From NCBI GenBank assembly GCA_020849895.1, contig JADZFN010000034.1, positions 7,942 to 71,941 on the forward strand: a stretch of 64,000 bases of DNA. Reading direction: 5' to 3'. The notes under the pieces were generated by a model. That model saw only the letters and a program-made list of their open reading frames with translations, was not told the origin of the DNA and searched no databases. Numbering within the stretch: position 1 is the first letter of the stretch; the number at the start of each line of letters is the position of its first letter. A program made the translations under genes and the position numbers. The stretch comes from Verrucomicrobiia bacterium (GTDB lineage Bacteria; Verrucomicrobiota; Verrucomicrobiia; JABWAM01). This document shows, piece by piece, positions 31,550 to 64,000 of this stretch.

Positions 31550-31660
31550 GGCTTTCTCTCTTCTGTTCCGGCGCGCGGCCGGAGGGGCGCCTCCCCCGCC
31601 GGGGTCCGGGGCCACCCGGACTCCCTGCGGGAGATGGCTTGAGGCGCGGTCGAGGCGAGG

Positions 31661-32038
31661 CTACTTGATCTCGACCTTCGCGCCGGCGGCTTCGAGCTTC
31701 TTCTTGATCTCGTCGGCTTCTTCCTTCGTCACGCCTTCCTTCACGGTCTTGGGCGCGCCCTCGACGAGGTCCTTGGCCTCCTTGAGGCCGAGCGAAGTGA
31801 CGGCGCGAACTTCCTTGATCACGTTGATCTTGTTCGCCCCGGTCTCCTTGAGGATGACGTCGAAGGTGGTCTTGGCTTCGGCAGCGGGTGCCGCGCCTCC
31901 GGCAGCGGGCGCGGCGGCCACGGCGACGGGCGCGGCGGCGCTGACGCCCCAAGCCTGTTCGAGTTCTTTCACGAGGTTCGCCATCTGCAGCACGGTGAGC
32001 GCGCTGAGCTGGTCAATGAGTGCCTTATTGTCCGACAT
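31661..32038 (-). CDS. rplL: 50S ribosomal protein L7/L12
   Basis: Starts [32 protein letters not shown]..., ends ...EAGAKVEIK. Confidence 0.95.
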
Positions 32039-32180
32039 GTTCTGATCCTAGTGTCATCGGCGCTCCGAAGGCCTCCGGAGCGATTGACCCCGGGAGCCCC
32101 CAGGGCCGATGGTTCACGTGTTGGGTTGTTGGGTTGTGTGGTGGTCTCCCCATCGAGGGGAAAAGAGGTGGAGGGCGGGG

Positions 32181-32693: not shown

Positions 32694-32733
32694 GGAAATC
32701 AGTGGAAAATGGGAAATGTGCAATGAGCAATGT

Positions 32734-33432: not shown

Positions 33433-33507
33433 AAGACTATTTCAGTTTCCTATATGGAGAAAGCGAGCTTCACAGGAGTTGGCTTGATGCGAAAATTCCT
33501 AAAACGG

Positions 33508-33933
33508 TCAGTCCACGACCTCGATGCCCATCGAGCGGGCGGTGCCGGCGATGGTGCGGTAGGCGGCTTCGTCGCTGGCGCAGTTCATGTCCTTGGCCTT
33601 CTTGGCCACGATCTCCATGATCTGCTTGCGGGTGACCTTGCCGACCTTGTTGCGGTTCGGCTGGCCGCTCGCGGTGGCGATATTGGCCGCCTTCTTGAGG
33701 AGCACGGGGGCGGGCGGCGACTTCGTGATGAAGGTGAAGGTCTTGTCCTTGTAGACGGTGATGACGACCGGGAGGATCTCGCCGGCCTGCTTCTGGGTGG
33801 CCGCGTTGAACTCCTTGCAGAACGCCATGATGTTGACTCCCTGCTGGCCGAGAGCGGGACCGACGGGAGGCGCGGGGTTGGCCTGCCCAGCGGGGATCTG
33901 GAGGCGAACGATTCCTGTGACTTCTTTGGCCAT
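33508..33933 (-). CDS. rplK: 50S ribosomal protein L11
   Basis: Starts [43 protein letters not shown]... Confidence 0.95.
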
Positions 33934-33978
33934 ATCAGTAAGCAGTAAGCGGTGAGCAGTGAGCGGTCAGAGCGAGGA

Positions 33979-34539
33979 TCAGGCTTTTTCGACCTGCCAG
34001 AATTCGAGTTCTACGGGGGTCGAGCGCCCGAAAATAGAGACGGAAACCTTGAGCTTGCCCTTCTCCTGATCCACCTCCTCGACCACGCCGGTCATGCCCT
34101 TGAAGGGGCCGTCGTTGACGTTAAGCGTCTCGCCGCGCTCGAAGTTCACTTTCGGCACGACGCGCTCCTCGCGGTCCTGCATCTGGGCAAGGATCTCGTC
34201 CACTTCGTGCTTAGGCAGCGGGATGGGGCGCTCTCCGCCGACGAAACCGAGGACGCCCGGGGTTTCGCGGATGAAGTACCAGGAACGGTCAATGAGCTTC
34301 TCATGCTCGTCCACCAGCTTCAATTGGATGATGAGGTAGCCGGGGAAGAACTTGCGGGTGGTGGTCGCGCGCTTCCCGCGCTTGACCTCCTCGACGCGCT
34401 CGGTGGGGATGAGCACGCGCGTGATGAGGTCGGCGACCTCCTCGCGCGCCTTGCGCTTCTCGATGCTGTCGAAGACCTTCTGCTCCTGCCCGGGAACACA
34501 GTGCAGCACGTACCATTGAGGTTGGAGGTCGGCGCTCAT
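33979..34539 (-). CDS. nusG: transcription termination/antitermination factor NusG
   Basis: Contains WYVLHCVPGQEQKV..., an NGN domain, and a C-terminal KOW (GPFKGMTGVVEEVD). Sits between secE and rplK. Confidence 0.93.
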   Translation of the reverse strand: MSADLQPQWYVLHCVPGQEQKVFDSIEKRKAREEVADLITRVLIPTERVEEVKRGKRATTTRKFFPGYLIIQLKLVDEHEKLIDRSWYFIRETPGVLGFVGGERPIPLPKHEVDEILAQMQDREERVVPKVNFERGETLNVNDGPFKGMTGVVEEVDQEKGKLKVSVSIFGRSTPVELEFWQVEKA

Positions 34540-34549
34540 GGGAAGATCC

Positions 34550-34747
34550 TTATCGCGTCACCACCAGGCTGAACACGCGTCCGATCAGGAAGTCGCAACC
34601 AAAGATGAATCCTCCAAGGGCCGCCATGGTGACGACAATCACGGTTGTGGATTCCTGAAGCTCCTCCCGCGTGGGGCGGGTGCACTTCAGAATCTCCTCC
34701 CGCACTTCGCGGAAGAACCTTCGGATGTTGTCGAACCATGTTTTCAT
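34550..34747 (-). CDS. secE: preprotein translocase subunit SecE
   Basis: 65 aa. Starts MKTWFDNIRRFFREVREEILKCTRPTREEL... followed by one TM helix. In the canonical position upstream of nusG. Confidence 0.9.
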   Translation of the reverse strand: MKTWFDNIRRFFREVREEILKCTRPTREELQESTTVIVVTMAALGGFIFGCDFLIGRVFSLVVTR

Positions 34748-34783
34748 TCAAAAGGCGAACGTAAGCACGCGGGAAGATCAGGC

Positions 34784-34859
34784 TGGCACGGCAGGAGGGA
34801 CTCGAACCCCCGACCCGCGGTTTTGGAGACCGCTGCTCTACCAACTGAGCTACTGCCGT
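34784..34859 (-). tRNA. trnW: tRNA-Trp (anticodon CCA)
   Basis: Hand-folded 76 nt: acceptor ACGGCAG/CTGCCGT, D-arm TAGCTCAGTTGGTAGAGC, anticodon loop CTCCAAA, T-arm GGGGGTTCGAGTCCCTC, encoded CCA. Coordinates are anchored on the secE start. Confidence 0.9.
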
Positions 34860-34872
34860 AAGTCCCCGCCTT

Positions 34873-35028
34873 TCACTTCTTCTCCCGGTGGAGCTGATGT
34901 TTGCCGCACCACCTGCAGAACTTGCGGATCTCCAACCGCTCGCTGCCCTGCGCCTTCTTGTTGCGGGTAGAGATGTAGTTCAGGCGCTTGCACTCCGTGC
35001 AGGCGAGCTGGATGGCCTCGCGCGGCAT
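34873..35028 (-). CDS. rpmG: 50S ribosomal protein L33
   Basis: Too short for the track. My own translation is MPREAIQLACTECKRLNYISTRNKKAQGSERLEIRKFCRWCGKHQLHREKK, with a CxxC..CxxC zinc ribbon. Confidence 0.88.
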   Translation of the reverse strand: MPREAIQLACTECKRLNYISTRNKKAQGSERLEIRKFCRWCGKHQLHREKK

Positions 35029-35032
35029 GGGG

Positions 35033-36229
35033 TCAGGCGAGGATGTCGCTCACGCGTCCCGCGCCGACGGTCTTGCCGCCTTCGCGGATGGCAAAGCGCA
35101 TCGCCTTCTCCATGGCGATCGGAGTGATCAGCTCCACCTCGATGGAGACGTTGTCGCCAGGCATCACCATCTCGACGCCCTGCGGCAGCTTCACCGAGCC
35201 GGTCACATCCGTCGTGCGGAAGAAGAACTGCGGGCGATAGTTGCTGAAGAACGGTGTGTGGCGGCCACCCTCGTCCTTGCTGAGGACATAGACCTCCGCC
35301 TTGAACTTGGTGTGCGGGGTGGTCGTGCCGGGCTTCGCGAGCACCTGGCCGCGTTCCACCTCCTCCTTCTTCGTGCCGCGCAACAGCGCGCCGATGTTGT
35401 CGCCCGCCTGCCCCTCGTCGAGCTCCTTGCGGAACATCTCGACGCCGGTGACGACGGTCTTCGTGGTGGGACGGATGCCAATGATCTCCACCTCCTCGCC
35501 CACCTTGACCTTACCGCGCTCCACGCGGCCGGTAACCACGGTGCCGCGGCCTTCGATCGAGAATACGTCCTCGACCGGCATCAGGAACGGCTGATCCACG
35601 TTGCGCACGGGAGTCGGGATATAGCTATCCACGGCCTCCATGAGCTCCAGGATGCACTTGGCGTCCGCGTGCGTGGGATCGCCCGCGGCGAGCGCCTTGG
35701 CGGCGCTGCCCTTGACGATCGGAATCTTGTCGCCGGGGAATTCATACTGGGTGAGGAGCTCGCGCACCTCCACCTCGACGAGGTCGAGCAACTCCTTGTC
35801 GTCCACCATGTCGCACTTGTTGAGGAACACGACGAGCGCGGGGACGCCGACCTGCCGAGCGAGCAGGATATGCTCGCGCGTCTGCGGCATCGGGCCGTCG
35901 GCGGCGCTGACCACCAGGATCGCACCGTCCATCTGGGCAGCGCCCGTGATCATGTTCTTCACGTAATCGGCGTGACCAGGACAGTCCACGTGCGCGTAGT
36001 GCCGCTTGTCGGTCTGATACTCAACGTGGCAAGTGTTGATGGTGATCCCGCGCTCCTTTTCCTCAGGCGCGTTGTCAATTTGATCGTACGCCTTTGCCTC
36101 GGCAAACCCCTTCTTCGCGAGAACGGTCGTGATCGCCGCGGTCAGCGTGGTTTTGCCGTGGTCAACGTGGCCGATGGTGCCCACGTTCACGTGCGGCTTG
36201 TTGCGGATGAACTTGTCTTTGCCAGCCAT
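35033..36229 (-). CDS. tuf: elongation factor Tu
   Basis: Track ORF 35033..36415 (its TTG start lies inside the tRNA) trimmed to ATG 36229 ([34 protein letters not shown]...). Confidence 0.97.
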
Positions 36230-36370
36230 AATCGAAGTGTGTGTTTGGTTTTCTCCTTGTTTCGCGGTCGTCCGCGCGCGCTCGCGCTCGGCCACCCGCC
36301 TTCTTCGCGCCCCGTGCTCCCTAAAAGCCTGCCTCCCCTCGTCGCCGCGCGAACGCGGCCAGCCGCCGGG

Positions 36371-36446
36371 TGGAGCCCACGACCAGGATTGAACTGGTGA
36401 CCTCGTCCTTACCAAGGACGTGCTCTACCAACTGAGCTACGTGGGC
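36371..36446 (-). tRNA. trnT: tRNA-Thr (anticodon GGT)
   Basis: Hand-folded 76 nt: acceptor GCCCACG/CGTGGGC, GTAGCTCAGTTGGTAGAGC, anticodon stem-loop CGTCC-TTGGTAA-GGACG, T-arm CCAGTTCAATCCTGG, encoded CCA. Confidence 0.9.
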
Positions 36447-53644: not shown

Positions 53645-53658
53645 TTGATTTGAATCAA
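53645..53658. promoter_or_regulatory. FNR/CRP-family binding-site candidate (TTGAT-N4-ATCAA)
   Basis: The sequence cTTGATttgaATCAAg is an exact match to both half-sites of the FNR consensus, extended to 7-bp arms (CTTGATT/AATCAAG). Its centre lies ~82 nt upstream of GTG 53733 and ~135 nt upstream of the divergent SDR gene start. Confidence 0.5.
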
Positions 53659-53732
53659 GGAATCTGAGGAGTCCGCCGTGCAGCATCCCCTCCGACGCGG
53701 CTTCTCATCCGAATCCCAACCTCTCATCCGTC

Positions 53733-56621
53733 GTGCATTCTCCTTCGCTTCCGGACAATTCCCCGGTGAAACCGGGGGTGGTCTCGTCGGCCTTCCTACT
53801 TCTTGGAGGCGCATTTTTTCTCCTGTTCTGCGCGGAACTCCTCATGGTGCCCGAGTGGTTCGTGACGGGAGCGCGCGACGCCGGCATGGCAGCAGTGCTT
53901 CATGCGGCGGTGCTGGGCTGGCTGCTGTCTGTGGGGTTTGGCGTCGTCTATCTCCTGCTCTCCGCGCTCCGCGCGACTCGACGGGGCGAAGGCCTTGCGG
54001 GACGGGTTCATTTCCTTTGCCATCTGACGGCCTTGGGCCTCTTGCTCCCCGCGTTCGCCCGATGGGACCTTGCGCTGGTGGCGCACGCAGGCACCCTGAT
54101 GCTGGTCGGGTTCCTCATCTTTGGAACGCTTTGCACGGGCAGTCTGGAAAAGGGGAGGCGCCTGCCGATGGTTCAGGTCACCATCGTCAGCAGCCTGACT
54201 TGGCTTTTCTTGACGCTGATTCTTGGGATTCTGGCGGCCGCTAATTATTATTGGACGTTTCTGCCGATGGGCACTTTGCGGGCGGTTCACGCCGGCATGC
54301 ACGCGGGGTTCGGCGGTTATGTGGTCCTCCTGCTCGTAGGGCTTTCGTATCCGCTGTTTCAGGCGGAGGCGCGCGGGAGCATGGAGCGGAGGCTCTGGGT
54401 GTTCCTCCTTTGCAACAGCGGCCTTTATCTCTCGGTGCTGGGGATCGCCTTCAGTTTGCCGGTGCTGCTTCCCGCGGTATTGCTCATCCTGGCGGGCCTC
54501 GTCCTTTACCTCATGGAGGCGATGGTCGGATTGCAGCTGCGCCATGGGCCGGCGGACGCCTGGGTTTGGGGGCTGCTGGCGGGTTTTCTTTCCATCCTGT
54601 TGCTCATGGGGCTGGGCCTCGCACTCGGCTTGAGCTCCAGCCAGACGCCTGTCGCGCTCGGGCGGCTGGAAAATCTATATGGCTTCTTGTGGATCACGAT
54701 CGCCACGGGTCTTCCGCTCTGGGCCGTGGCGGGCCGCATGTTGCAGCCCCGCGCGGGAAACCGGCGGCGGACCCGGATCACCCTGTTCTTCTACGTGACC
54801 GCCGCCCTCGTGGGTGGCTGGGGAATTTTTATCGGAAGCCCGCGCGGAGTGCGCGTCGGCGGACTGCTCCTCCTCCTGGGCGGCGGGGATCTACTCCTCA
54901 CGCTGCTGCCGGGATTGTGGACGGCGCTTTCGGGCCGCGTATCGCGCACGGAAGACGACCGCAAGGCCGCCGTCGAAACGGCGAACGAACGACTCGGACC
55001 GCCGATCGTGGTCTGGGCGATCCTGGTGGCGGTCGTTGCATGGATCCTCGCGGGGCTGCTGCCGCATTCGGGCGCGCACCGTCCGCGCGTGATCAGTGTC
55101 GAGAAGAGCGTCTCGATGAACGGAGACGGCCCGGCCTGCCCGGTGCGGCGTTGGATCGGCCTCAAGAACGATTCACTGGCCCGCGGAAAGAATCTTTACG
55201 GCCAGCATTGTGCAACCTGCCACGGAACGACCGGCGCGGGCGACGGCAGCGCGGCGATTTATCTTTATCCAAAACCGCGCAACTTCACCGCCGGCCAGTT
55301 CAAGCTCCGTTCGACCGCCTCGGGCATGCCGACCGACGAGGACCTTTACCGGGTGATGAGCGCCGGGATGTCAGGCAGCTCGATGCCGTCCTTCGCGCAC
55401 CTGTCCGAGCAATCCCGCCGCGATCTGGTGGAGTATGTCAAGCGCCTCAGCCAGGCGGAGGAGAATGGACGGATGGTGAATTGGTTCAAGGAAACTCCGC
55501 CGGGCTCCTCGCTGCCCACGCCACGCAAGCCGGAGTTCACGCCCGAGCTCGCGGCCGCCGGCAAGCGGGTCTATCAATCCCAGGATTGCAAACGCTGTCA
55601 CGGCCCGGAAGGACGCGGCGACGGGCCGGAAGCGGCGACGTTGAAAGATTCCTGGGGCGGCCGCCTGCGCCCGCGCAGTCTGGTCCAGGATCCTTTCCTT
55701 GGCGGTGACGCCGCAGAATCCATTTTCCTGAGAACGGCGACGGGAATCGGCGGCACGCCGATGACGGCCTATCCCGACACACAGATCAAGCCGGAGGACC
55801 GTTGGGCGTTGGTCGCCTACATCCGCTCCCTTCGTCAGCAAGCCGGCACGCTGGACGAAGGGGCCCCCAGCGCCTCACCCGTCGCTGAGCCGGTCGCCCG
55901 CCATCTGAAGGGCGCGCTGCCTTCTTCCCCCTCCGATCCGTCATGGGACGCGCTGCCCGTCGCGCTCGTAGCCGTCAATCCGGTGTGGCGCACGACGCAG
56001 CCGACGCGCCACGCCGCCCTCCGCGCCGCGCATGACGGCAAAGATCTCGCGCTGCTGCTCGAATGGTCGAATCCTGAACCGGTGCTCGGCGGTGGGCGCG
56101 TCCAGGATTACACGGATCGCGCGGCGCTCCAGTTCAGCCTCCACGCGAGCCCTGGATTCCTGGGCATGGGCGATCCATTTCGCCCGGTGAACCTGTGGCA
56201 GTGGAGCTGTCGTCGCCGCGCAACCAGCCAGGGACCCCAGGCGCTCATGATGGACATCTATCCGGAGAAGAAAGCGGACCTCTATCCCGACGGACGCAAG
56301 CTTGTCTATTCGGCTGAAATGGCGGGGAATCTCGTCGCGGAGGAAGGGGTGGACGCCATCGAAGACGCCAACGCCCAAGGCCCGGGGACGCTCGCGCTGC
56401 AATCCGCGGCTGATCAGAATGTCATCGGCGCGAGCGCATGGTCGGAAGGCAAATGGCGGGTGCTTTTCCGGCGGAGCCTGGTCCCGAAGGGGCGCGCCGA
56501 CGTGGACCTCGCCCCGGGACATCGCGTTCCGGTGGCGATCGCGATTTGGGACGGACGCACCCGCGATCGCAACGGACAAAAAAACGTCTCCGCCTGGCAT
56601 TTCCTCACCCTTGAACCCTGA
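53733..56621 (+). CDS. fusion protein: polytopic membrane domain + two c-type cytochrome domains + EB_dh (type II DMSO-reductase gamma-subunit-like heme-b) domain
   Basis: GTG start. Residues 1-~440 contain about 13 hydrophobic helices with several intramembrane His (LHAAVLGW, HFLCHL, VAHAG, AVHAGMHAGFGG). CATCH lies at aa 493 (nt 55209) and CKRCH at aa 619 (nt 55587), with downstream Met candidates (SSMPSF, GTPMTAY). The C-terminal ~240 aa (AALQFSL...VNLWQWS...WSEGKWRVLFRRSL...VAIAIWDG...) resemble the ethylbenzene-dehydrogenase gamma/cytochrome c-552-DMSO-reductase-like heme-binding domain. Confidence 0.8.
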   Translation: MHSPSLPDNSPVKPGVVSSAFLLLGGAFFLLFCAELLMVPEWFVTGARDAGMAAVLHAAVLGWLLSVGFGVVYLLLSALRATRRGEGLAGRVHFLCHLTALGLLLPAFARWDLALVAHAGTLMLVGFLIFGTLCTGSLEKGRRLPMVQVTIVSSLTWLFLTLILGILAAANYYWTFLPMGTLRAVHAGMHAGFGGYVVLLLVGLSYPLFQAEARGSMERRLWVFLLCNSGLYLSVLGIAFSLPVLLPAVLLILAGLVLYLMEAMVGLQLRHGPADAWVWGLLAGFLSILLLMGLGLALGLSSSQTPVALGRLENLYGFLWITIATGLPLWAVAGRMLQPRAGNRRRTRITLFFYVTAALVGGWGIFIGSPRGVRVGGLLLLLGGGDLLLTLLPGLWTALSGRVSRTEDDRKAAVETANERLGPPIVVWAILVAVVAWILAGLLPHSGAHRPRVISVEKSVSMNGDGPACPVRRWIGLKNDSLARGKNLYGQHCATCHGTTGAGDGSAAIYLYPKPRNFTAGQFKLRSTASGMPTDEDLYRVMSAGMSGSSMPSFAHLSEQSRRDLVEYVKRLSQAEENGRMVNWFKETPPGSSLPTPRKPEFTPELAAAGKRVYQSQDCKRCHGPEGRGDGPEAATLKDSWGGRLRPRSLVQDPFLGGDAAESIFLRTATGIGGTPMTAYPDTQIKPEDRWALVAYIRSLRQQAGTLDEGAPSASPVAEPVARHLKGALPSSPSDPSWDALPVALVAVNPVWRTTQPTRHAALRAAHDGKDLALLLEWSNPEPVLGGGRVQDYTDRAALQFSLHASPGFLGMGDPFRPVNLWQWSCRRRATSQGPQALMMDIYPEKKADLYPDGRKLVYSAEMAGNLVAEEGVDAIEDANAQGPGTLALQSAADQNVIGASAWSEGKWRVLFRRSLVPKGRADVDLAPGHRVPVAIAIWDGRTRDRNGQKNVSAWHFLTLEP

Positions 56622-56625
56622 CCTT

Positions 56626-59600
56626 ATGAGCGAGCCCGACTTCTCTCCGCAAGGAAACGCCGACCCGACACACGAAGGCGACGCGTCCCATTTCAGCCGA
56701 CGCGCCTTTCTCTGTCTCGCCGGCCTCGCCGGCGCGGGCGCTTTGGCGTCCCAGTATCTTCCGACGCGCTTCCTGCGTCCCTCTCGCGATATCAAGAATC
56801 CCCTCGCCTACTATCCCGAGCGCGGTTGGGAATCGGTCTATCGCAATCAGTATGCGCATGACGGGACCTTCTCCTGGGTGTGCGCGCCGAACGACACCCA
56901 CAACTGCCGCGTGCTCGCCCATACGCGCAACGGGGTCATCGTCCGCATGGGCGACCAATACGACGTCGGGACCTACCGCGATCTTTACGGGAACACGGCC
57001 TCGCAGAATTGGGGCATCCGCCAATGCGCCAAGGGCTATACCTTCCACCGCATCGTCTACGGGCCGTTCCGGCTCAAGCATCCCATCGTCCGTCGAGGAT
57101 GGAAACAGTGGGCGGAGGCGGGGTTCCCCGATCTCACGCCCGAACTTCGGTCGAAGTTCCGCTTCGACGACCGAGGAAACGACGAGTTCGAAAAAGTTGG
57201 TTGGGACGAGGTCAACCGCCTGATCGCAAAGGCGCTCAAGTCCATCGCCACGCGGTACAGCGGCGAAAAAGGCGCGGCGCGCCTGAGGACGGAAGGTTAT
57301 CCCGAGGAGATGATCGCGGACATGGGCGGCGCCGGCACGCGCACGATTAAGACGCGCGGAGGCATGGGACTGCTCGGTGTCCTGGGCAAATACGGAATGT
57401 ATCGCCTCTGCAATTCGCTCGCCCTCCTCGACCAGCACGTGCGCGGAGTTCCGGACGAACAGGCGCGCGCGGGACGCATCTGGTCGAACTACACCTGGCA
57501 CGGCGATCAGGCGCCCGGCCACCCCTGGGTGCACGGCCTCCAGAACAGCGAGTGTGACTTCAACGACCTCCGCTCCTCGAAGCTCATCATCATGAACGGC
57601 AAGAATCTTGTCGAAAACAAGATGGCTGAGGCGCACTGGTTCATCGAGTGCATGGAGCGCGGCGCGAAGATCGTCGTGATCGCCCCCGAATACGGCGCGC
57701 CCTCGACGAAGGCCGATTACTGGATCCCCGTCCGCCCCTCCACCGACGCTGCGCTCTGGCTCGGCGTCGCTCGGATCATGATGGACCGGGGCTGGTACAA
57801 GGAGGATTTCGTCAAGCGCTTCACCGATTTCCCGCTGCTCGTCCGCGCCGACAACCTGCGCCGCCTGCGGGCCCACGAGGTTTTCCCGGGATATCAAGGG
57901 CGGCTCATCAAGGAGGGTGCGAGCTTCACCGTCCAGGGACTGACCGAGGAACAGTATGCCAAGACCGGGGATTTTGTGGTCTGGGACCAAATGAGCGGCG
58001 GACCGAAGCCCATCACTCGCGATGAGGTCGGCGAGAAGATGACGGGATTGGATCCCGCGCTCGACGGCCGCTGGAAAATCCGACTGGCAGACGGTCGCGA
58101 GGTGGAGGTCTTCGCGCTGTGGACCCTCTATCGGGAACACCTCAAGGATTACGATCTCGATACGGTCGCGGAAGTCACCCACGCGCCCAAGGAACTCATC
58201 GAACGATTGGCGCATGATTGCGCCACGATCGAACCGGTCTCGATCCATCAGGGGGAAGGGATCAACCACTGGTTCCACGGTACGGAAGCCAACCGCGCCT
58301 CCTATCTTCCTCTCATGCTGACCGGCAACATCGGGAAACGGGGCGCGGGCAGCCACGGCTGGGCCGGCAACTACAAGGCCGCGCTCTTCCAAGGATCGAA
58401 GGAAACCGGTTACGGATTCAAGGGATGGGTGGCCGAGGACCCGTTCCATCCGCTGCTCGATCCGAAGGCGCCCGGCAAGGAGGTCCATGCGCGCCCCTGC
58501 TTCAAGGATGAGGAGCCCGCCTATTGGAACCACGGAGACGTGCCGCTCATCGTGAACACGCCGAAGGAGGGGCGAAAGTGTTTCACCGGCAAGACGCACA
58601 TGCCGACACCGACCAAGGCGATCTTCTTCTGCAACGTCAACCTCATCAACAATGCGAAGTGGTGCTACGGGATGATCAAGAACGTCAACCCGCGCGTCGA
58701 GTTGATCGTCACGATGGACATCCAGATGACGGCTTCGGCCCAGTTCGCCGACATCGCCCTGCCGGCGAACTCCTGGGTCGAGTTTCAGGACCTCGAAGTC
58801 ACCGCGAGCTGCTCGAACCCCTTCCTGCAGATCTGGAAAGGCGGCATCAAGCCGCTCTATGACTCGCGCGACGACCTCGCCATCCTCGCGGGCATCGCGA
58901 AGGCGTTGGGCGACGAGACCGACGACCGCCGCTTTCACGATTACTTCCGTTACGAGCTCGAGGGCAAGCGTTCAGTCTATCTTCAGCGCCTGCTCGACAC
59001 CTCGACAACCACCGCGGGCTACAAGCTCGAAGACATCATGGCCGGCAAATACGGTCCGCCCGGTGCGGCGCTGATGCTTTTCCGCACCTATCCACGAATT
59101 CCGTTCTACGAACAGATTCACGACAACCTCCCGTTCCACACGGACACGGGGCGGATGCACGCCTACAGCGACGATCCCACCGCGATCAGCTGCGGAGAAA
59201 ACTTCATCGTGCATCGGGAAGGTCCCGAGGCCACACCCTATCTTCCGAACGCGATCCTCTCCAGTAATCCGTATGTGCGTCCCAACGATTATGGGATCCC
59301 TCTCGACGCCCAGGGTTGGGACGAGCGCACCGTGCGCAACGTCAAAATGAACTGGGCGGCCATCAAGAAGAGCAAGAACTTCCTCTGGGAAAAGGGCTAC
59401 CAGTTCTACTGCCTGACTCCGAAGTCGCGTCACCGCGTGCACTCGACATGGTCGAACGTGGACTGGCACCAGATCTGGGATTCCAACTTCGGCGATCCAT
59501 ATCGGCTCGACCGACGGCTCGCCGGCGTGGGCGAGCACCAGCTGCACATCAATCCCGCCGCCGCGCGCGATCTGGGCATCAAGGACGGGGATTACGTCTA

Positions 59601-60111
59601 CGTGGACGCCAACCCCGCCGATCGCCCGTATTACGGGGCGACGCCCGCCGATCCGTTCTACAAGATCAGCCGCTGCATGCTGCGCGTCACCTTCAACCCG
59701 GCCTATCCCTACCACGTCGTGATGATGAAACACGGAACCTACATTGCCACCCCCAAGACCGTGAAGGCGCAGCAGGAGCGCCCCGATGGCATGGCGATGA
59801 GCGACGACGGCTACATGGCCAATTTCCGCTTCGGTTCGCAGCAGTCCATCACGCGCAACTGGCACATGCCGATGCACCAGACGGACACGCTTTTCCACAA
59901 GACGAAGGCCTTCATGGGCTTTCTCTTCGGAGGCGAGGCGGACAACCACGCCCTGAACACCGTCCCGAAGGAATGCCTCGTGCGCATCGTCAAGGCCGAA
60001 GACGGCGGCCCGGGCGGCCGCGGCATGTGGAAACCCGCCACCGAAGGCATGTCTCCGGGCGGCGAGGATGAACGGATGCAACGCTACCTGCGCGGCGATT
60101 ACGCCGCCTGA
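56626..60111 (+). CDS. Tat-exported molybdopterin oxidoreductase, type II DMSO-reductase-family alpha subunit (NarG/NxrA-like)
   Basis: Track ORF 56302.. trimmed to ATG 56626, 4 nt after the upstream stop. Twin-arginine signal SHFSRRAFLCLAGLAGAGALA. FS0 cluster motif C86-x3-D90-x3-C94...C134. WHGD294QAPG aligns with the NarG Asp Mo-ligand region. 1161 aa. Confidence 0.88.
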   Translation: MSEPDFSPQGNADPTHEGDASHFSRRAFLCLAGLAGAGALASQYLPTRFLRPSRDIKNPLAYYPERGWESVYRNQYAHDGTFSWVCAPNDTHNCRVLAHTRNGVIVRMGDQYDVGTYRDLYGNTASQNWGIRQCAKGYTFHRIVYGPFRLKHPIVRRGWKQWAEAGFPDLTPELRSKFRFDDRGNDEFEKVGWDEVNRLIAKALKSIATRYSGEKGAARLRTEGYPEEMIADMGGAGTRTIKTRGGMGLLGVLGKYGMYRLCNSLALLDQHVRGVPDEQARAGRIWSNYTWHGDQAPGHPWVHGLQNSECDFNDLRSSKLIIMNGKNLVENKMAEAHWFIECMERGAKIVVIAPEYGAPSTKADYWIPVRPSTDAALWLGVARIMMDRGWYKEDFVKRFTDFPLLVRADNLRRLRAHEVFPGYQGRLIKEGASFTVQGLTEEQYAKTGDFVVWDQMSGGPKPITRDEVGEKMTGLDPALDGRWKIRLADGREVEVFALWTLYREHLKDYDLDTVAEVTHAPKELIERLAHDCATIEPVSIHQGEGINHWFHGTEANRASYLPLMLTGNIGKRGAGSHGWAGNYKAALFQGSKETGYGFKGWVAEDPFHPLLDPKAPGKEVHARPCFKDEEPAYWNHGDVPLIVNTPKEGRKCFTGKTHMPTPTKAIFFCNVNLINNAKWCYGMIKNVNPRVELIVTMDIQMTASAQFADIALPANSWVEFQDLEVTASCSNPFLQIWKGGIKPLYDSRDDLAILAGIAKALGDETDDRRFHDYFRYELEGKRSVYLQRLLDTSTTTAGYKLEDIMAGKYGPPGAALMLFRTYPRIPFYEQIHDNLPFHTDTGRMHAYSDDPTAISCGENFIVHREGPEATPYLPNAILSSNPYVRPNDYGIPLDAQGWDERTVRNVKMNWAAIKKSKNFLWEKGYQFYCLTPKSRHRVHSTWSNVDWHQIWDSNFGDPYRLDRRLAGVGEHQLHINPAAARDLGIKDGDYVYVDANPADRPYYGATPADPFYKISRCMLRVTFNPAYPYHVVMMKHGTYIATPKTVKAQQERPDGMAMSDDGYMANFRFGSQQSITRNWHMPMHQTDTLFHKTKAFMGFLFGGEADNHALNTVPKECLVRIVKAEDGGPGGRGMWKPATEGMSPGGEDERMQRYLRGDYAA

Positions 60112-60116
60112 ACGCT

Positions 60117-60377
60117 ATGCCAAAGGACGAAACCGACCGTGACGATCCGTTGGAGCTTAACGGCGCGGTCGTGCCGTGCTCCGAAGACAACGACGAGGAA
60201 ATGGCCGTGGCCTTCATCGAGGAGTTCCTCATGCTCGACTATGAGCCGGCGCACCTCCTGGATATCTTTCGGGACCCGAATCACGTCGGGCCCCATCGCG
60301 TTTATGTGAACAAAGGCGAAGCCTGGGTGGCCGGACTGATCGCCAAGACCCTCGAACCCTGGACCCAATCCTCATGA
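60117..60377 (+). CDS. 86-aa acidic hypothetical protein between the alpha and beta subunit genes
   Basis: Starts MPKDETDRDDPLELNGAVVPCSEDNDEEMAVAFIEEFLMLDYEPAHLLDIFRDPNHVGPHRVY... The ATG lies 5 nt after the alpha stop, and its stop overlaps the beta ATG (ATGA). I recognise no family. Confidence 0.6.
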   Translation: MPKDETDRDDPLELNGAVVPCSEDNDEEMAVAFIEEFLMLDYEPAHLLDIFRDPNHVGPHRVYVNKGEAWVAGLIAKTLEPWTQSS

Positions 60378-61645
60378 GCCAAGTGTACAACTGGCATCTC
60401 GGGCGCGACATGGCCTATCCCTACGAGGCCAGTTATCCCGACCTGCAATTCGCCTTCGTCTTCAACACCAATCGCTGCATCGGCTGCCAGTCCTGCACGA
60501 TGGCCTGCAAGTCCACATGGACCTTTTCAGCGGGACAGGAATACATGTGGTGGAACAACGTCGAGACCAAGCCCTACGGCGGCTACCCGCGCCATTGGGA
60601 TGTGAAGCTCCTCGACATGCTCCACCAGGTCAACGGCGGCCCCGGCGAATGGTCTCGCGCGTCCGACACCCGTCGCGCGCCGTGGGGCGAATTCCACGGG
60701 AAAACCATCTTCGAAACCGCGCCCAACGCTCCTACGGAAAACGGCTCCCAGACTGCGCTCGGCTATCTCCCGTCCGATGAGGAATGGAACACACCCAACC
60801 TTTTCGAGGATAACCCGGTCAACGCCCGCGCCACGAAAAAAGGCGAATACTTCAAGAGCGGGACGGAAATGCCTTCGCATGACGCCTGGTTTTTCTATCT
60901 TGCGCGCATCTGCAACCACTGCACCTATCCCGCCTGCCTCGCGGCTTGCCCACGAAAGGCAATCTACAAGCGTCCGGAGGACGGCATCGTCCTCATTGAT
61001 CAGAAGGAATGCCGGGGCTACCGCAAGTGCATGGAAGCGTGTCCTTACAAGAAGACCCACTATCGTGCGACCACACGGACGACCGAGAAGTGCATCGGCT
61101 GCTATCCGCGCATCGAGGGCAAAGACGCCGACGCGAAAGGACGCCCCTTCACCACCCGTTGCATGAGCGCCTGCATCGGTCAGATCCGTCTGCAGAGCTT
61201 CATCAAGCTGAACGGAGACGGCACTTGGGCGGAGGAACGCAACAACCCGATCTACTACCTCGTGCATGTCGCGAAGATCGCTCTTCCGCTCTATCCACAG
61301 TTCGGCACCGAACCCAACGGCTTTTACATCCCGCCCCGCTGGGTGCCGCGTCCCTACCTGCACCAGATGTTCGGTCCCGGCGTGGATGCCGCCATCGAGA
61401 AATACACCGCTCTCGACCGCGAGACCCTCGCCGTCCTCCAGCTCTTCGGGAAGGACAAGCACATCTGCCGCCGCTATGAGATCCGCGAAGGCCCGAAGGT
61501 CTTCGAGAAGGAGATCCGGGGACGGAAAGTGGAGATCTTCAACGACACCATCATCGGCTACGACGCGGATGGACGAGAAATCGTCCGCGCCACCGTCGAG
61601 GAACCGCTCCACGTCCGGAACGCAAAGCATGCCAACTCGATCTGA
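60374..61645 (+). CDS. iron-sulfur beta subunit of type II DMSO-reductase-family enzyme (NarH/NxrB-like)
   Basis: Four ferredoxin-type Cys groups: CIGCQSCTMACK, CNHCTYPACLAACP, CRGYRKCMEACP (a 3Fe-4S-type group with Y where NarH has W) and CIGCYPRIE...RCMSACIGQIR. The N-terminus is MSQVYNWHLGRDMAYPYE...EYMWWNNVETKPYGGYP. 423 aa. Confidence 0.9.
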   Translation: MSQVYNWHLGRDMAYPYEASYPDLQFAFVFNTNRCIGCQSCTMACKSTWTFSAGQEYMWWNNVETKPYGGYPRHWDVKLLDMLHQVNGGPGEWSRASDTRRAPWGEFHGKTIFETAPNAPTENGSQTALGYLPSDEEWNTPNLFEDNPVNARATKKGEYFKSGTEMPSHDAWFFYLARICNHCTYPACLAACPRKAIYKRPEDGIVLIDQKECRGYRKCMEACPYKKTHYRATTRTTEKCIGCYPRIEGKDADAKGRPFTTRCMSACIGQIRLQSFIKLNGDGTWAEERNNPIYYLVHVAKIALPLYPQFGTEPNGFYIPPRWVPRPYLHQMFGPGVDAAIEKYTALDRETLAVLQLFGKDKHICRRYEIREGPKVFEKEIRGRKVEIFNDTIIGYDADGREIVRATVEEPLHVRNAKHANSI

Positions 61646-62420
61646 CTCTCCAGCAGCGGCTTCCTCCGCAGTCGCCGTCGCGGCGGCGCGGGCGTTCGCC
61701 TACCGCTTTCTCTCCGAAACCTTCGCTTATCCCGAAGCGGAGGGCTGGGTTTGGGCGCAGGCGAAGGAGACTGGAGAGACGCTGGCTCGCGCTGCCGCCG
61801 ACGCGTGGCCCGATCACCCTGAAATCCGAAAAGCGGCCGAGGAAGCCGTCCACGCGCTCCGCGAGGTTTCCCTGGAGGCTGCGCGCGCCGACCACCTCCG
61901 CGCCTTCGGCTACACCATCCGCGGCGCCTGCCCTCCGCACGAGATCGAATACGGCGATACGAAGGCGGACGCCCTTTTCCGTCCGCATCGCCTCGCCGAT
62001 CTCGCCTCGCTCTACCGCGTGTTCGGGCTCGAGATGAGAGAGGAAATCCGCGAACGCCTGGATCATCTCGCCATCGAGTGCGAGTTTGCCTCCCTCCTCG
62101 CGGCGCGCACGGCGCACGCCGCGCAGGAAGGCCATGCCGAAGGGCAGGAGTCCTGCGAGAGCGCTTGGAAACTTTTTCTCGGGGAACACCTCGGGCGCTG
62201 GACGCCCTCGTTCGTCTCGCGCCTCGGGCGCGGCGGAACCGCTCCATGGCTCCAGCGCGCCGCGGCGTTTCTCATGGCGGTCGTACGCGTCGAGTGCGCC
62301 GCCCTCGGCCTTCAGCCCGGCTCCGCAGAAATCGAGCTCGTCTCCTACGACGAGGACGACGACGCTTTTTGCGCCGAGAAATGCGGCCTCCCTGTAGGAA
62401 AAACCGACGGTGCGCCGTGA
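61629..62420 (+). CDS. TorD/NarJ/DmsD-family redox-enzyme maturation chaperone (delta subunit-like)
   Basis: Track ORF 61266.. trimmed to ATG 61629, which overlaps the beta end by 17 nt. Contains ARAFAYRFLSETFAYPEAEGW...ADHLRAFGY...PHEIEY...DHLAIECEFASLL...FLGEHLGRW, the pattern of TorD-like chaperones. Confidence 0.75.
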   Translation: MPTRSDSPAAASSAVAVAAARAFAYRFLSETFAYPEAEGWVWAQAKETGETLARAAADAWPDHPEIRKAAEEAVHALREVSLEAARADHLRAFGYTIRGACPPHEIEYGDTKADALFRPHRLADLASLYRVFGLEMREEIRERLDHLAIECEFASLLAARTAHAAQEGHAEGQESCESAWKLFLGEHLGRWTPSFVSRLGRGGTAPWLQRAAAFLMAVVRVECAALGLQPGSAEIELVSYDEDDDAFCAEKCGLPVGKTDGAP

Positions 62421-63352
62421 AGATCCGTTTCGACCGCGACCTGATCGAGGCCGCCTATCTCTCGGCCGGTCCTCGGGAAGATCTGGACCGCGAAGAGCTG
62501 TACGATCTTCGCGACGAACGCGAACGCAACGAGGCGTTCGGCGCGCATCACGCCCGCTGGTTCCGCAAAGCGGGGTTCGAGGCCAGACTCCTCGGCGCAT
62601 TCGCCGAGTGGCCGAGGGTGGGCGAGAACTGCGAGGAAGCCGTACTCCGTCGGGTGCGCAACCCGGCCGACGAGTTCGCAGAGCTGTTCCGCAATCGCGA
62701 AGGGCTTTCCCGCGTGGGCGTCGGTCTGCGCGCGAGCCGTCTCACGGACGGGTCGTACCTTCCTTTTCTGCGCCACGAGCTCGCCCACCTCGACGATATG
62801 TTCGACCCCGGGTTCGGCTACCCCGGAGAAGTTCCCCGGGACCCCTCGCCCGCGGCGCAGCTCCGGAGAGAACGCTACCGCATCCTCTGGGACCTGCGCG
62901 GAGACTCCCGTCTGCAGCGGCGTTTCCCGGACGCCCCCGATTTCTCAAAGGCCCTGGCGCGCCACCGGAGCGAATTCGAACGCGTCTTTTCCTTCATGGA
63001 CCTTGCGGAACGCGAGGCGCTCTTCGACGAGATCACGAGCGAGACGTCGGCCCCGCATGCCCGCCTCTGGGAAGTGGCCTGCGACCCGCGCCACCTCCGC
63101 GGTCGGGAGAGTGTCGAAGCGCCTGGCGCGGAGTGCCCCCTCTGCAGGTTCAGCACCTTTCAGTGGGCGTCGAACGAGGCGCGGGAAACCGCCGCACCGG
63201 CGATCCGAAACGAGTTTCCCGATTGGCGGCCGGAACACGGCTGCTGCGAGCGGTGCGCGGAGGTCTACGCCGCTGTCCGTTCCTCGGCGATTCCTCCGAC
63301 GGTTCTGCTTCCTTCTCGCCTTTCGCAAAGCTCGCGCGTCCTCCTCCAATAG
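62417..63352 (+). CDS. hypothetical protein with HExxH motif and C-terminal Cys4 (zinc-ribbon-like) motif
   Basis: Track ORF 62078.. trimmed to GTG 62417, which overlaps the chaperone stop (GTGA); ATG 62381 is an alternative start. Contains LPFLRHELAHLDDMFDP (HExxH) and a C-terminal CPLCRF...(~35 aa)...CCERCAEVY. Confidence 0.6.
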   Translation: MKIRFDRDLIEAAYLSAGPREDLDREELYDLRDERERNEAFGAHHARWFRKAGFEARLLGAFAEWPRVGENCEEAVLRRVRNPADEFAELFRNREGLSRVGVGLRASRLTDGSYLPFLRHELAHLDDMFDPGFGYPGEVPRDPSPAAQLRRERYRILWDLRGDSRLQRRFPDAPDFSKALARHRSEFERVFSFMDLAEREALFDEITSETSAPHARLWEVACDPRHLRGRESVEAPGAECPLCRFSTFQWASNEARETAAPAIRNEFPDWRPEHGCCERCAEVYAAVRSSAIPPTVLLPSRLSQSSRVLLQ

Positions 63353-63463: not shown

Positions 63464-64000
63464 ATGCTCCGAGCCGGAATCGTCGGTCTACCCAACGTGG
63501 GCAAAAGCACGCTCTTCAACGCGCTCATCCGCGCGCGAAAAGCGGATGCCGCCAACTACCCCTTCTGCACCATCGAACCGAACATCGGAGTGGTCGCCGT
63601 GCCCGATCCGCGTCTCGACCGCCTCGCCGAGATGTCTCGTTCGGCGAAGAAGGTCCCTGCCGCGATCGAGTTCGTGGATATCGCCGGGCTCGTCAAAGGC
63701 GCCAGCCAGGGCGAAGGGCTCGGCAACCAATTCCTCACGCACATCCGCGAAGTGGATGCAATCATCCAGGTCGTCCGCTGTTTCGAGGATGCAAACGTCC
63801 ATCATGTAAGCGGCAGCATCGAGCCGTTGCGCGACATCGAAGTGATCGCAACGGAACTCGTCCTCGCCGATCTCGCCTCGCTTCAGCGCCGCAAGGACAA
63901 ACAGGGGAAAGCGGCTCGTAGCGGCGACAAGATCGCGCAGGCCGAAATGCGCGTCATCGAAAAAATCGAACCGCATCTCGATGGAGGAAAGCCCGCGATC
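63464..64000 (+). CDS. ychF: ribosome-binding ATPase YchF (partial; continues past the window end)
   Basis: My own translation from ATG 63464 is [54 protein letters not shown]...[24 protein letters not shown]... The frame is open to base 64000. Confidence 0.9.

Follow-up and report, generated by a model that had tools for sequence, protein, structure and literature searches.

Genes of the nitrite oxidoreductase (NXR) type are widely used as metagenomic markers of nitrite oxidation. The NXR-ABC complex of Kuenenia stuttgartiensis (KsNXR; PDB 7B04; Chicano et al. 2021, PMC8387239) catalyzes the reaction in both directions; diagnostic residues of its alpha subunit KsNXR-A are C67, D71, C75 and C115 of the FS0 site, the substrate-coordinating Asn70, which is replaced by Ile in ethylbenzene dehydrogenase, and the molybdenum ligand Asp275 (PMC8387239). 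In Nitrospira and Nitrospina, the genomes code for a chaperone resembling TorD, an alternative NxrC that has two c-heme sites, a diheme cytochrome c and a protein described as "putative zinc-finger" (PMC3578206). Thermogutta terrifontis and Methanoperedens, which reduce nitrate, have enzymes of the same clade (PMC10732223; PMC5673643). A gene cluster of this type is present in a 64-kb stretch of DNA (the window) from a bacterium of the Verrucomicrobiia.

The cluster comprises six co-directional genes on the plus strand (53733–63352), with intergenic gaps of +4, +5, −4, −17 and −4 nt: a gamma fusion (53733–56621; 962 aa, GTG start), alpha (56626–60111; 1161 aa), x (60117–60377; 86 aa), beta (60374–61645; 423 aa), delta (61629–62420; 263 aa) and y (62417–63352; 311 aa). 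All six open reading frames, at most 5 nt apart or overlapping, are present on this strand as claimed in the initial annotation, and Pfam and NCBIfam matches as well as motifs agree with the domain content stated there; the start of the cluster, however, had been placed at position 53645, which belongs to an FNR-type box and not to a gene, the first gene starting at 53733. The tight spacing suggests that the six genes are co-transcribed. A scan for promoter and terminator consensus sequences yielded counts no higher than shuffle level. A co-directional gene coding for a YchF-like GTPase, starting near position 63464, follows y outside the cassette. The housekeeping proteins EF-Tu and NusG place the host in the Verrucomicrobiia, their 90% clusters being named Verrucomicrobiae or Verrucomicrobiia, and the nearest alpha homologues come from Verrucomicrobiota metagenome-assembled genomes (MAGs), in line with the non-nitrifying PVC host that had been proposed. 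The host is a heterotrophic soil or water bacterium of the Verrucomicrobia.

Alpha scored 1681 bits against Kuenenia NXR-A (7b04_B; residues 23–1158, 59% identity over 896 columns) and beta 576 bits against NXR-B (7b04_A; full length, 63% identity). The homology search put the Kuenenia enzyme far ahead of the other solved enzymes: the next-best solved enzyme, PcrAB, reached about 200 bits (PcrA, 198 for alpha), EbdAB 141 and 196 bits, and NarGH 109 and 167 bits for alpha and beta, respectively, the alpha scores against PcrA, EbdA and NarG being 8–15 times below that against NXR-A. Alpha matches the Molybdopterin and DMSO_red_II_alp families and beta, which contains 16 Cys, the Fer4_11 and DMSO_red_II_bet families; the subfamily matched in NCBIfam is the generic type II DMSO-reductase one, with scores that stay below its cut-offs. 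The Tat motif SRRAFL of alpha (residues 24–29), followed by a hydrophobic stretch, aligns with the Tat region of KsNXR-A. Likewise, C86-x3-D90-x3-C94 and C134 align with the four FS0 residues of KsNXR-A, and N89 and D294 are found at the positions of the substrate Asn70 and the molybdenum ligand Asp275. Both the Tat signal and the Cys-x3-Asp-x3-Cys motif had been noted initially, and the end-to-end alignment with retention of the diagnostic residues supports the earlier view that alpha and beta resemble the periplasmic NXR of Nitrospira, Nitrospina and anammox bacteria. Membership in the periplasmic NXR clade is supported by bit scores, identities and aligned residues, with the Kuenenia enzyme as the sole NXR reference. 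Alpha is the Tat-exported Mo-bisMGD catalytic subunit; beta, a subunit with four Fe-S clusters, has no signal peptide and is probably a Tat hitch-hiker.

In its C-terminal part, gamma combines an EB_dh domain with a pair of cytochrome c domains (motifs CATCH at 493 and CKRCH at 619). The diheme region (aa 478–700; 55164–55832) matches Pfam Cytochrom_C and Cytochrome_CBB3 and scored 164 bits against the diheme cytochrome 6h5l_B of Kuenenia. For the EB_dh heme-b domain (aa 755–950; 55995–56582), the Pfam E value is 1.7e-20 and the score against NXR-C (7b04_C) is 78 bits; the Met of a GMGD motif at 811 and the Lys of an NGQKN motif at 947 align with the ligands Met155 and Lys305 of KsNXR-C. The AlphaFold2 (AF2) model of the gamma N-terminus (pLDDT 78.5, pTM 0.81) shows 12 transmembrane (TM) helices and one anchor helix, which accounts for the approximately 13 helices counted previously. 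This thirteenth helix (aa 425–441; 55005–55055) corresponds to the N-terminal signal or anchor helix of standalone gamma subunits, as matched by an alignment of the junction with the related loci L081 and L082, where the 12-TM protein and gamma are encoded by two genes. Going by the model and by positive-inside loop charges read from the sequence, it would carry the C-terminal heme domains to the periplasm.

The preceding 12-TM domain (aa 1–401; 53733–54935) has no Pfam or NCBIfam match, and its close relatives have no Pfam match either, including PF05940 (NnrS) at threshold. The best Foldseek matches of the model in the PDB were CcoN of cbb3 oxidase, bo3 oxidase and NO reductase (NOR), with TM scores of 0.55–0.60 and E values down to 3.5e-5, and all among the top 50 matches were subunit I of cbb3, bo3, aa3 or NOR. 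Distant members of the 12-TM family match Pfam COX1 and NnrS, and the family profile (A3) aligned with an NnrS-positive protein from locus L070 at an hhalign probability of 97.2% (E 3e-11); the profile of the close subclade alone (A2) gave a weak 14%. The family profile retrieved just one chance match from the PDB sequences; the fold relationship is derived from the AF2 model and Foldseek. As modeled, the domain is a distant relative of NnrS with the fold of heme-copper oxidase (HCO) subunit I, a relationship which Foldseek and hhalign bring out and which the initial annotation had not recognized. Its conserved His residues (57, 93, 97, 118, 186 and 190) are confined to TM2, TM3, TM4 and TM6. 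There is no His in TM7 or TM10, the six-His ligand set of HCOs is not reproduced, and the CuB triad is without counterpart even under a circularly shifted correspondence. In the family, TM2 has an almost invariant His and TM6 an HxH motif (Hx3H here), both of them located on the periplasmic side. The domain most likely binds one or several b-type hemes and may serve gamma as membrane anchor and as point of electron entry or exit, and judging from its sequence and model it is most likely not an O2 or NO reductase.

The 12-TM family, with 479 cluster representatives, typically consists of standalone proteins some 420–450 aa long, and within it a fusion to a cytochrome c/b subunit was found in just the window copy and in L083, a locus of another assembly with 90% identical alpha, which contains the same fused gene with 72% identity over 960 aa. 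In L081 and L082 the 12-TM gene and gamma are strictly adjacent or overlapping, separated by a stop codon or a 4-nt overlap. The fusion claimed for the first gene is real, but its TM part is elsewhere normally a separate gene or absent. An assembly or sequencing artifact, considered because of a single-member cluster on one contig, is ruled out by the fusion in L083, and a spurious 12-TM reading frame in high-GC DNA is ruled out by the homologues and the GC3 profile. A literature search yielded no report of an HCO/NnrS–NxrC fusion.

Delta matches Pfam Nitrate_red_del (E 1e-21) and TIGR03482 (E 9.8e-18), as befits a maturation chaperone of the TorD/NarJ type. The small acidic protein x (pI 4.2) has no match in searches of Pfam and NCBIfam; in 75 loci its gene occupies the same place between alpha and beta, and the N-terminus, MPKDE.D..DP.EL.G, is conserved. 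The predicted cytoplasmic protein y, encoded downstream of delta in most loci, contains the motifs HELAH at 120 (HExxH, 120–124), CPLC and CERC, and D127 and Cys 240, 243, 277 and 280 are invariant in its alignment (A4). It has no Pfam or NCBIfam match, and its 77 homologues are all named hypothetical protein or left unnamed. Its AF2 model (pLDDT 90) gave no significant Foldseek match in the PDB (best E 0.1); a weak similarity to ChlB, in its HExxH oxygenase domain (E 0.1, TM about 0.25), was dismissed as evidence. Presumably y is a maturation factor, and both conserved proteins, x and y, probably have an accessory role or one in maturation in the cytoplasm.

The conserved set is no rarity: hundreds of public genomes carry it, under the labels "nitrate reductase / nitrite oxidoreductase alpha" or "molybdopterin-dependent oxidoreductase". 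A search of public genomes yielded 529 genomic relatives. Gene order was compared in the best 80 of these 529 loci; the matches listed (the best 80 loci and 120 proteins) are all closer relatives than the Nitrospira and Nitrospina references. Given a contig of sufficient length, essentially every complete locus among the 80 keeps the order gamma-alpha-x-beta-delta-y, with a gamma of the diheme-c/EB_dh type. Carriers among the best 80 belong to the Verrucomicrobiota, Phycisphaerae, Omnitrophota, Methylomirabilota and others. Genes for molybdenum cofactor biosynthesis, ScdA/hemerythrin, Rrf2 regulators, qNOR and NnrS-DUF1858 proteins (including NnrS-DUF1858-ScdA_N) occur near the cassette in relatives, a neighborhood typical of nitrate/nitrite respirers, denitrification and NO stress. 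An identical six-gene cassette with 75% identical alpha is found in Limisphaera sibirica VF2 (L034); a literature search for "nitrite oxidoreductase" in connection with Limisphaerales returned nothing.

The perfect FNR/CRP-family box reported upstream of the cluster (TTGAT-N4-ATCAA; TTGATTTGAATCAA, 53645–53658, no strand assigned) is present; its last base lies 74 nt ahead of the GTG with which gamma starts. It is the sole perfect match in the 64-kb window; when one mismatch is tolerated, the matches number 3 versus 0.58 expected. At the same tolerance, a box is positioned −99 to −190 nt from the start of the cytochrome c domain in 23 of 41 verrucomicrobial loci, compared with about 0.3 expected (overall density, 83 matches in 1.5 Mb), while loci L042–L080 contain no box at that upstream position. 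The sister locus L083 has a one-mismatch box upstream of its fused gene; L081 and L082, the two closest relatives with separate genes, are without an FNR box. The box is a predicted binding site of a CRP/FNR-family regulator.

The operon encodes an NXR-type Mo-bisMGD enzyme that is exported to the periplasm by the Tat pathway and that, in our judgment with a fair degree of probability, acts here as a dissimilatory nitrate reductase induced by a CRP/FNR-type regulator under anoxic or nitrosative conditions. That the enzyme may run reductively had been suggested before and is the best-supported reading, because the box is conserved and because cassette-bearing Limisphaera isolates respire nitrate. 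L. sibirica VF2 and L. vallis are capable of anaerobic nitrate respiration and do not grow lithoautotrophically, nor do these carriers respire selenate; "distant NarGHI homologs" are limited to these two species and are not present in the strictly aerobic L. ngatamarikiensis (PMC13608581). The cassette of L034 is a candidate counterpart of these homologs, the link to nitrate respiration being correlative. According to the proposed mechanism, a CRP/FNR-family regulator would bind the box at 53645–53658 and induce the operon under anoxic or nitrosative conditions, and delta would insert the molybdenum cofactor ahead of Tat export. Electrons would be passed from menaquinol via a membrane module to the two c-hemes of gamma, and from there via the Met/Lys-ligated heme b and the beta clusters FS4 to FS1 to FS0 (3Cys/1Asp) and the molybdenum site, where periplasmic nitrate would be reduced to nitrite. 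In most carriers the membrane module would be alternative complex III or a bc complex, connected by soluble or anchored cytochromes; in the window lineage it would be the fused NnrS-like domain.

The catalytic direction is not readable from the sequence, and the closest biochemically characterized enzymes are nitrite oxidoreductases. A true nitrite oxidoreductase working oxidatively is nevertheless unlikely here. Electrons from periplasmic nitrite would then flow via heme b and the c-hemes to a terminal oxidase, either of the cbb3/caa3 type or, in the window lineage, the fused oxidase-like domain, and the benefit to the host would be additional energy (mixotrophy) or the removal of toxic nitrite in a micro-oxic setting. 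For passing nitrite-derived electrons to a cytochrome c oxidase, the diheme-c gamma would be just as suitable. Micro-oxic genes, for example cbb3 oxidase operons, are likewise driven by FNR-type boxes, so the box is compatible with micro-aerobic nitrite oxidation. A gamma with c-hemes moreover fits the expected high-potential electron donation to cytochrome c (PMC3578206), and nitrite oxidation has been proposed for the same clade in a study of Planctomycetota MAGs (PMC10732223). However, the cultured carriers are nitrate-respiring organoheterotrophs without lithoautotrophic growth, the neighborhoods are of the denitrification and NO-stress type, and the oxidase fold of the fused domain, which would suit a terminal oxidase, comes without the TM7/TM10 His, i.e., without the canonical CuB and helix-X pattern.

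The fused domain may, with a rather low probability, be a redox-active heme (possibly heme/copper) membrane module that exchanges electrons directly with the c-hemes of the NXR gamma subunit. To our knowledge, no biochemical activity has been established for NnrS, which reportedly is an NO-stress protein under the control of NnrR. The relationship of the 12-TM family to NnrS and the occurrence of NnrS-DUF1858-ScdA_N, ScdA/hemerythrin, Rrf2 and qNOR genes near the cassette in other loci are consistent with a domain that stands outside the electron path and shields the enzyme or the cell's iron centers from NO formed from nitrite, a role that has been proposed for NnrS, the fusion simply ensuring co-expression and co-localization. 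Such a protective role appears quite improbable, as the covalent fusion to a three-heme electron transfer subunit in two genomes points to a physical redox complex, and so does the strict adjacency or overlap of the two genes in sister loci. Finally, a different substrate (chlorate, perchlorate, selenate or an organic compound) might be considered, given that many members of the type II DMSO-reductase family are promiscuous and that the NCBIfam matches are generic, but this is very improbable in view of the conserved substrate Asn and molybdenum-ligand Asp of KsNXR, the high identity to NXR-A, the far lower scores against PcrA, EbdA and NarG, and the lack of selenate respiration in the Limisphaera carriers.

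The cassette occurs in hundreds of heterotroph-like genomes, with a conserved FNR-type site and ties to nitrate-respiring isolates, and for these reasons the NXR marker probably reports anaerobic nitrate reduction in a large part of the clade, which would change the reading of nitrogen-cycle gene inventories. Its seven-part architecture (gamma, alpha, x, beta, delta and y, plus an optional NnrS-like membrane protein), a conserved minimal system not described as a unit before, includes the uncharacterized proteins x and y, the predicted fold of the latter being without match among solved structures. The cassette itself is not unique; the new element is the 12-TM domain fused to gamma. The fusion of an NnrS-related protein with a cytochrome suggests, as a strong hint to the role of this family, that its members are redox partners of periplasmic cytochromes. 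If the domain is redox-active, an NXR-type enzyme that is otherwise soluble or loosely anchored would become, through the fusion, a membrane complex complete in itself, namely a menaquinol:nitrate oxidoreductase or, in reverse, a nitrite-oxidizing complex with its own terminal acceptor site. The NnrS-related family would then for the first time have a biochemical role, that of a partner to c-type cytochromes in the periplasm.

Comparison with described systems places the locus closest to Kuenenia NXR-ABC. Full-length homology extends to alpha, to beta and, within gamma, to the EB_dh part, and the Tat signal, the 3Cys/1Asp FS0 site, the Asp ligand of molybdenum, the substrate Asn and the Met/Lys-coordinated heme b are common to both. 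Whereas the Kuenenia enzyme is encoded in a 15-gene cluster (kustd1699–1713), a compact six-gene cassette is found here, in a heterotrophic host and without an anammoxosome or tubule context; compared to NXR-C, gamma has an extra diheme-c domain and, in the window lineage, the N-terminal 12-TM domain. The NXRs of Nitrospira and Nitrospina (Lücker et al. 2010, 2013; PMC3578206) belong to the same periplasmic clade, as judged via the Kuenenia enzyme, and the chaperone, c-heme and zinc-finger proteins encoded in their genomes may correspond to delta, gamma and y. In these bacteria, however, nxrAB(C) are adjacent and the accessory genes dispersed, in contrast to the compact cassette, and the proposed membrane partner is cytochrome bd-like rather than NnrS/HCO-like. 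Among the heterotrophic, facultatively anaerobic carriers of related enzymes, Limisphaera (PMC13608581) shares the phylum and Thermogutta terrifontis (PMC5673643, PMC10732223) the superphylum with the host; in Limisphaera sp. VF-2 (L034), gamma is a plain protein of some 530 aa that has a single N-terminal helix, and within reach of the cassette there is no gene of the NnrS-like kind. NnrS (PF05940) and CcoN (PDB 3MK7, 8SMR) are, like the window domain, bundles of 12 TM helices whose N-terminus lies inside (Foldseek TM 0.58–0.60 to CcoN), but the window domain differs in being fused to a cytochrome c/b subunit and in having no His in TM7 and TM10. The soluble enzymes PcrAB, SerABC, ClrABC, EbdABC and DdhABC as well as NarGHI are of the same superfamily and follow the same logic of alpha, beta, EB_dh-type gamma and TorD-like delta, yet their scores of 100–200 bits are much lower than those of Kuenenia NXR. 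As pointed out in the initial annotation, the subunit lengths differ from those of NarGH and of the shorter Ser/Clr/Ddh/Ebd enzymes, with 1161 aa for alpha versus 899–976 or 1247 aa and 423 aa for beta versus 333–352 or 512 aa in the soluble type II DMSO reductases and NarGHI. NarGHI faces the cytoplasm, with a His-type FS0 and the diheme-b anchor NarI; the Tat motif, the Asp-type FS0, a gamma combining EB_dh and cytochrome c domains, and the confirmed gene order gamma-alpha-x-beta-delta-y distinguish the locus described here from cytoplasmic NarGHJI.

The cassette, six genes in the order gamma-alpha-x-beta-delta-y on the plus strand of the window, comprises gamma (53733–56621, GTG start, a 962-aa fusion protein), alpha (56626–60111, 1161 aa), x (60117–60377, 86 aa), beta (60374–61645, 423 aa), delta (61629–62420, 263 aa), and y (62417–63352, 311 aa). 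The tight, co-directional packing reported in the initial annotation was confirmed, with intergenic distances of +4, +5, –4, –17, and –4 nt; position 53645, however, which had been taken as the start of the cluster, belongs to an FNR-type box, and gamma begins only at 53733. High GC3 and low GC2 characterize the reading frames of gamma, alpha, x, and beta, as expected of real genes in local DNA of 64% GC. Pfam and NCBIfam searches agreed with the domain content assigned previously, namely two cytochrome c domains and EB_dh in gamma, Molybdopterin/DMSO_red_II_alp in alpha, Fer4_11/DMSO_red_II_bet in beta, and Nitrate_red_del/DMSO_red_II_cha in delta, which is a TorD/NarJ-type chaperone; the same searches gave no match for x, for y, or for the N-terminal ~450 residues of gamma. 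Since all NCBIfam scores of the cassette proteins were far below the curated cut-offs, the NCBI models provide only generic names. A co-directional gene coding for a YchF/Ola1-like GTPase (63464–64000, plus strand) begins about 111 nt past y; this adjacency is not kept in relatives.

When alpha and beta were compared with all PDB sequences, both matched nitrite oxidoreductase of Kuenenia stuttgartiensis (KsNXR, PDB 7B04) best. Residues 23–1158 of alpha align with NXR-A (7B04_B) at 1681 bits, followed by the perchlorate reductase subunit PcrA (198 bits), ethylbenzene dehydrogenase (141 bits), and NarG (109 bits); beta aligns with NXR-B from end to end (576 bits), followed by PcrB (207), EbdB (196), and NarH (167). 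Identities to KsNXR, counted from the printed alignments, are 59% for alpha (896 columns) and 63% for beta. The FS0 ligands of KsNXR are C67, D71, C75, and C115, its substrate-coordinating residue is N70, its Mo ligand D275, and the haem-b ligands of NXR-C are M155 and K305 (PMC8387239). At the aligned positions, alpha carries the equivalent residues C86, N89, D90, C94, C134, and D294, and the Met of a GMGD motif and the Lys of an NGQKN motif of gamma occupy the positions of the haem-b ligands. A twin-arginine motif, SRRAFL, is located at residues 24–29 of alpha.

The contig was placed by means of a conserved housekeeping block comprising rpoC, rpoB, L7/L12, nusG, and tuf (23644–36424, minus strand). 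Named members of the 90% clusters of EF-Tu and NusG are Verrucomicrobiae or Verrucomicrobiia MAGs, supporting the non-nitrifier, PVC-like host proposed initially and assigning the contig to the Verrucomicrobiia; the clusters of rpoB and rpoC contained only unnamed members. Ribosomal protein genes also occur in the window, and cluster mates of alpha are named 'molybdopterin-dependent oxidoreductase [Verrucomicrobiae bacterium]'. When one genome per GTDB species was scanned, 529 stretches encoding an alpha relative were identified. The majority of the best 80 of these 529 (69–77% identity) belong to Verrucomicrobiota, among them the isolate Limisphaera sp. VF-2, followed by Phycisphaerae and other Planctomycetota, Omnitrophota, Methylomirabilota/Rokubacteria, 'Deltaproteobacteria'/Binatia, Acidobacteriota, and Sumerlaeota. 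Conservation of the six-gene order, a check suggested in the initial annotation, was observed among these best 80 of 529 loci wherever the contig is long enough, with a gamma composed of dihaem c and EB_dh parts. Alpha homologues make up at least 2192 90%-clusters in the protein database, where they are labeled 'nitrate reductase alpha subunit', 'nitrate reductase / nitrite oxidoreductase, alpha subunit', or 'molybdopterin-dependent oxidoreductase'. Judging from the 529 relatives, the kept gene order, and the conserved x and y, the cassette is a widespread conserved unit and no oddity of the window genome; it is poorly described as a unit, though the kind of enzyme is known.

Local variants occur among the 80 loci: in L042, 4.3 kb separate gamma from the alpha gene downstream of it, 1.7-kb inserts separate alpha from beta in L060 and L065, y is displaced by ~4 kb in L018, and the cytochrome c and EB_dh parts are separate ORFs in L079. 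Seven loci (L009, L014, L017, L031, L039, L040, and L072) have a cassette of verrucomicrobial type (74–76% alpha identity) on oddly labeled contigs; the labels Bifidobacteriaceae, Hyphomicrobiales, Myxococcales, Bifidobacterium, and Akkermansia muciniphila are probably mis-assigned bin taxonomies.

The FNR-type box noted upstream of the cluster was verified as a perfect palindrome, TTGATTTGAATCAA, at 53645–53658, and is the sole perfect site of this type in the window. Searching the loci for TTGAT-N4-ATCAA with up to one mismatch revealed a box just upstream of gamma, 99–190 nt before the cytochrome c domain match starts, in 23 of 41 verrucomicrobial loci, and in none of the loci L042–L080 at that position. 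All loci together contain 83 such sites in 1.5 Mb, so that about 0.3 would be expected in the intervals of the 41 loci. Among four closer relatives by alpha identity (L081–L084), L083 has a one-mismatch box immediately upstream of its fused gamma gene, and L081 and L082, the closest relatives with a separate NnrS-like gene, have no FNR box. The conserved CRP/FNR-family site could equally be used by an NO-sensing regulator of the Dnr/NnrR type. An A/T-rich palindrome, e.g. AAACAAGATAAAAAGATAAATATATCTTTTTATCTTGTTT, is located upstream of the NnrS-like gene in L081 (9880–10000) and L082 (9880–9960), and genes of Rrf2-family regulators are found nearby (L081, 3166–3591; L082, 5707–6147); palindrome and regulator may place the same operon under NO-responsive control of the NsrR type.

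KsNXR catalyzes the reaction in both directions (PMC8387239). Physiology of Limisphaera, related enzymes, and gene neighborhoods, together with the FNR-type site, favor the reductive option already considered in the initial annotation, and we think it probable that the window enzyme acts as an anaerobic periplasmic nitrate reductase in this host. According to a 2026 description, both Limisphaera vallis and L. sibirica VF2 use nitrate and nitrite for anaerobic respiration, do not grow lithoautotrophically, and possess MK-7 and alternative complex III; 'distant homologs of NarGHI' were reported only for these two and are absent from the strictly aerobic L. ngatamarikiensis (PMC13608581). The cassette is present in the VF-2 genome (L034). 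Thermogutta terrifontis and Methanoperedens, both of which reduce nitrate, have enzymes of the same clade (PMC10732223; PMC5673643), for which authors working on Planctomycetota MAGs also hypothesised nitrite oxidation (PMC10732223); micro-oxic nitrite oxidation by the window enzyme appears unlikely to us. Consistent with nitrate reduction, neighborhoods in the relatives contain genes for Moco biosynthesis, ScdA/haemerythrin, qNOR, and NnrS-type proteins.

Of the accessory proteins x and y, x occupies the same place in 75 loci, and its acidic N-terminus is strongly conserved. All 77 detectable homologues of y are named 'hypothetical protein' or lack a name; four Cys and one Asp are invariant among them, and the ExxH part of the HExxH motif is nearly so. 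No signal peptide is present in y, and its confidently predicted structure (pLDDT 90) showed no significant likeness to solved PDB structures; the faintest hint pointed toward ChlB (8s5f) and its HExxH oxygenase domain. The counterpart of y may be the 'putative zinc-finger protein' conserved in nxr regions of Kuenenia, Nitrospira, and Nitrospina (PMC3578206). The dihaem-c domain of gamma (55164–55832) is most similar to Kuenenia chain 6h5l_B (164 bits), which was crystallised together with an HAO-type octahaem protein; a 2026 preprint lists 6H5L as Kuenenia HAO structure. A putative hydroxylamine oxidoreductase and Nar-like genes co-occur only in the nitrate-respiring Limisphaera strains (PMC13608581).

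A single ORF of 385–770 aa (mostly 510–600 aa) encodes gamma in 77 of the 80 loci; this gamma comprises two c-haem domains, EB_dh, and no more than 1–2 hydrophobic helices at its N-terminus. The N-terminal 12-TM domain of the window gamma has only eight word-level homologues, all standalone proteins of 410–467 aa. In the close relatives L081, L082, and L084 (alpha identities of 85%, 86%, and 83%), the NnrS-like protein is encoded by a separate gene directly upstream of gamma, in-frame and one stop codon apart in L081, and overlapping by 4 nt in each of the other two. That the fusion is an artefact, the fused gamma being the sole member of its protein cluster, is ruled out by the same fusion in L083 from the independent assembly GCA_029558365.1 (alpha 90% identical; fused protein 72% identical across 960 residues, its linker having diverged); it is therefore real and common to two related genomes. 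The NnrS-like/oxidase-fold domain is fused here and operon-linked in sister genomes, and thereby makes an uncharacterised family of membrane proteins accessible to testing.

An exhaustive profile search (E ≤ 1e-3) yielded 479 cluster representatives of this family, typically of 420–450 aa; among the members listed, the length of 962 aa is unique to the window protein. Distant members match Pfam COX1, among them the cassette neighbor in L014 (E 6.5e-15) and the member in L001, and the family profile aligns at 97% probability over 384 columns with an NnrS/DUF1858/ScdA_N protein whose gene lies close to the L070 cassette. The AlphaFold model (pLDDT 78.5, pTM 0.81) has 12 TM helices and an anchor helix. 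Each of the 50 top-ranking PDB matches of the model is a subunit I, either from a haem-copper oxidase or from an NO reductase, with cbb3 CcoN in first place (TM 0.60). Loop charges suggest that the N-terminus and all even-numbered loops are cytoplasmic, so that helix 13 would carry the haem domains to the periplasm. His is conserved in 99% of the family at the position of H57 (TM2) and in 89% and 84% at the HxH of TM6, which in the window subclade reads H186-x3-H190 with Gly at position 188; two His in TM3 are conserved in ~57%. TM7 and TM10 have no His; thus the canonical CuB triad and the helix-X pair are not reproduced. We conclude that the domain is a distant NnrS relative with an oxidase fold and not a canonical O2 or NO reductase; binding of b-haem(s) close to its periplasmic side is plausible. 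Proteins of ~650 aa combining ScdA_N, an NnrS-type 12-TM domain, and two DUF1858 domains are encoded within 5–8 kb of the cassette in an Acidobacteriota MAG (L070, 18723–20675) and a Phycisphaerae MAG (L044, 4912–6858). Beside the cassette of L014, a small gene (3780–4301), DUF2249-like by eye only, adjoins the NnrS-like gene upstream.

The lengths of the catalytic subunits had initially been described as unlike those of NarGH and the shorter type II enzymes, which was borne out against the PDB proteins. Together with bit scores, ligand residues, and the Tat motif, all compared with PDB sequences and with Kuenenia as reference, they support the assignment of the window enzyme, proposed at the outset from its sequence, to the periplasmic NXR clade. 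NarGH (1247 and 512 aa) and PcrAB/EbdAB (899–976 and 333–352 aa) differ from the window alpha and beta in length, whereas the NXR subunits of 1148 and 410 aa match them.
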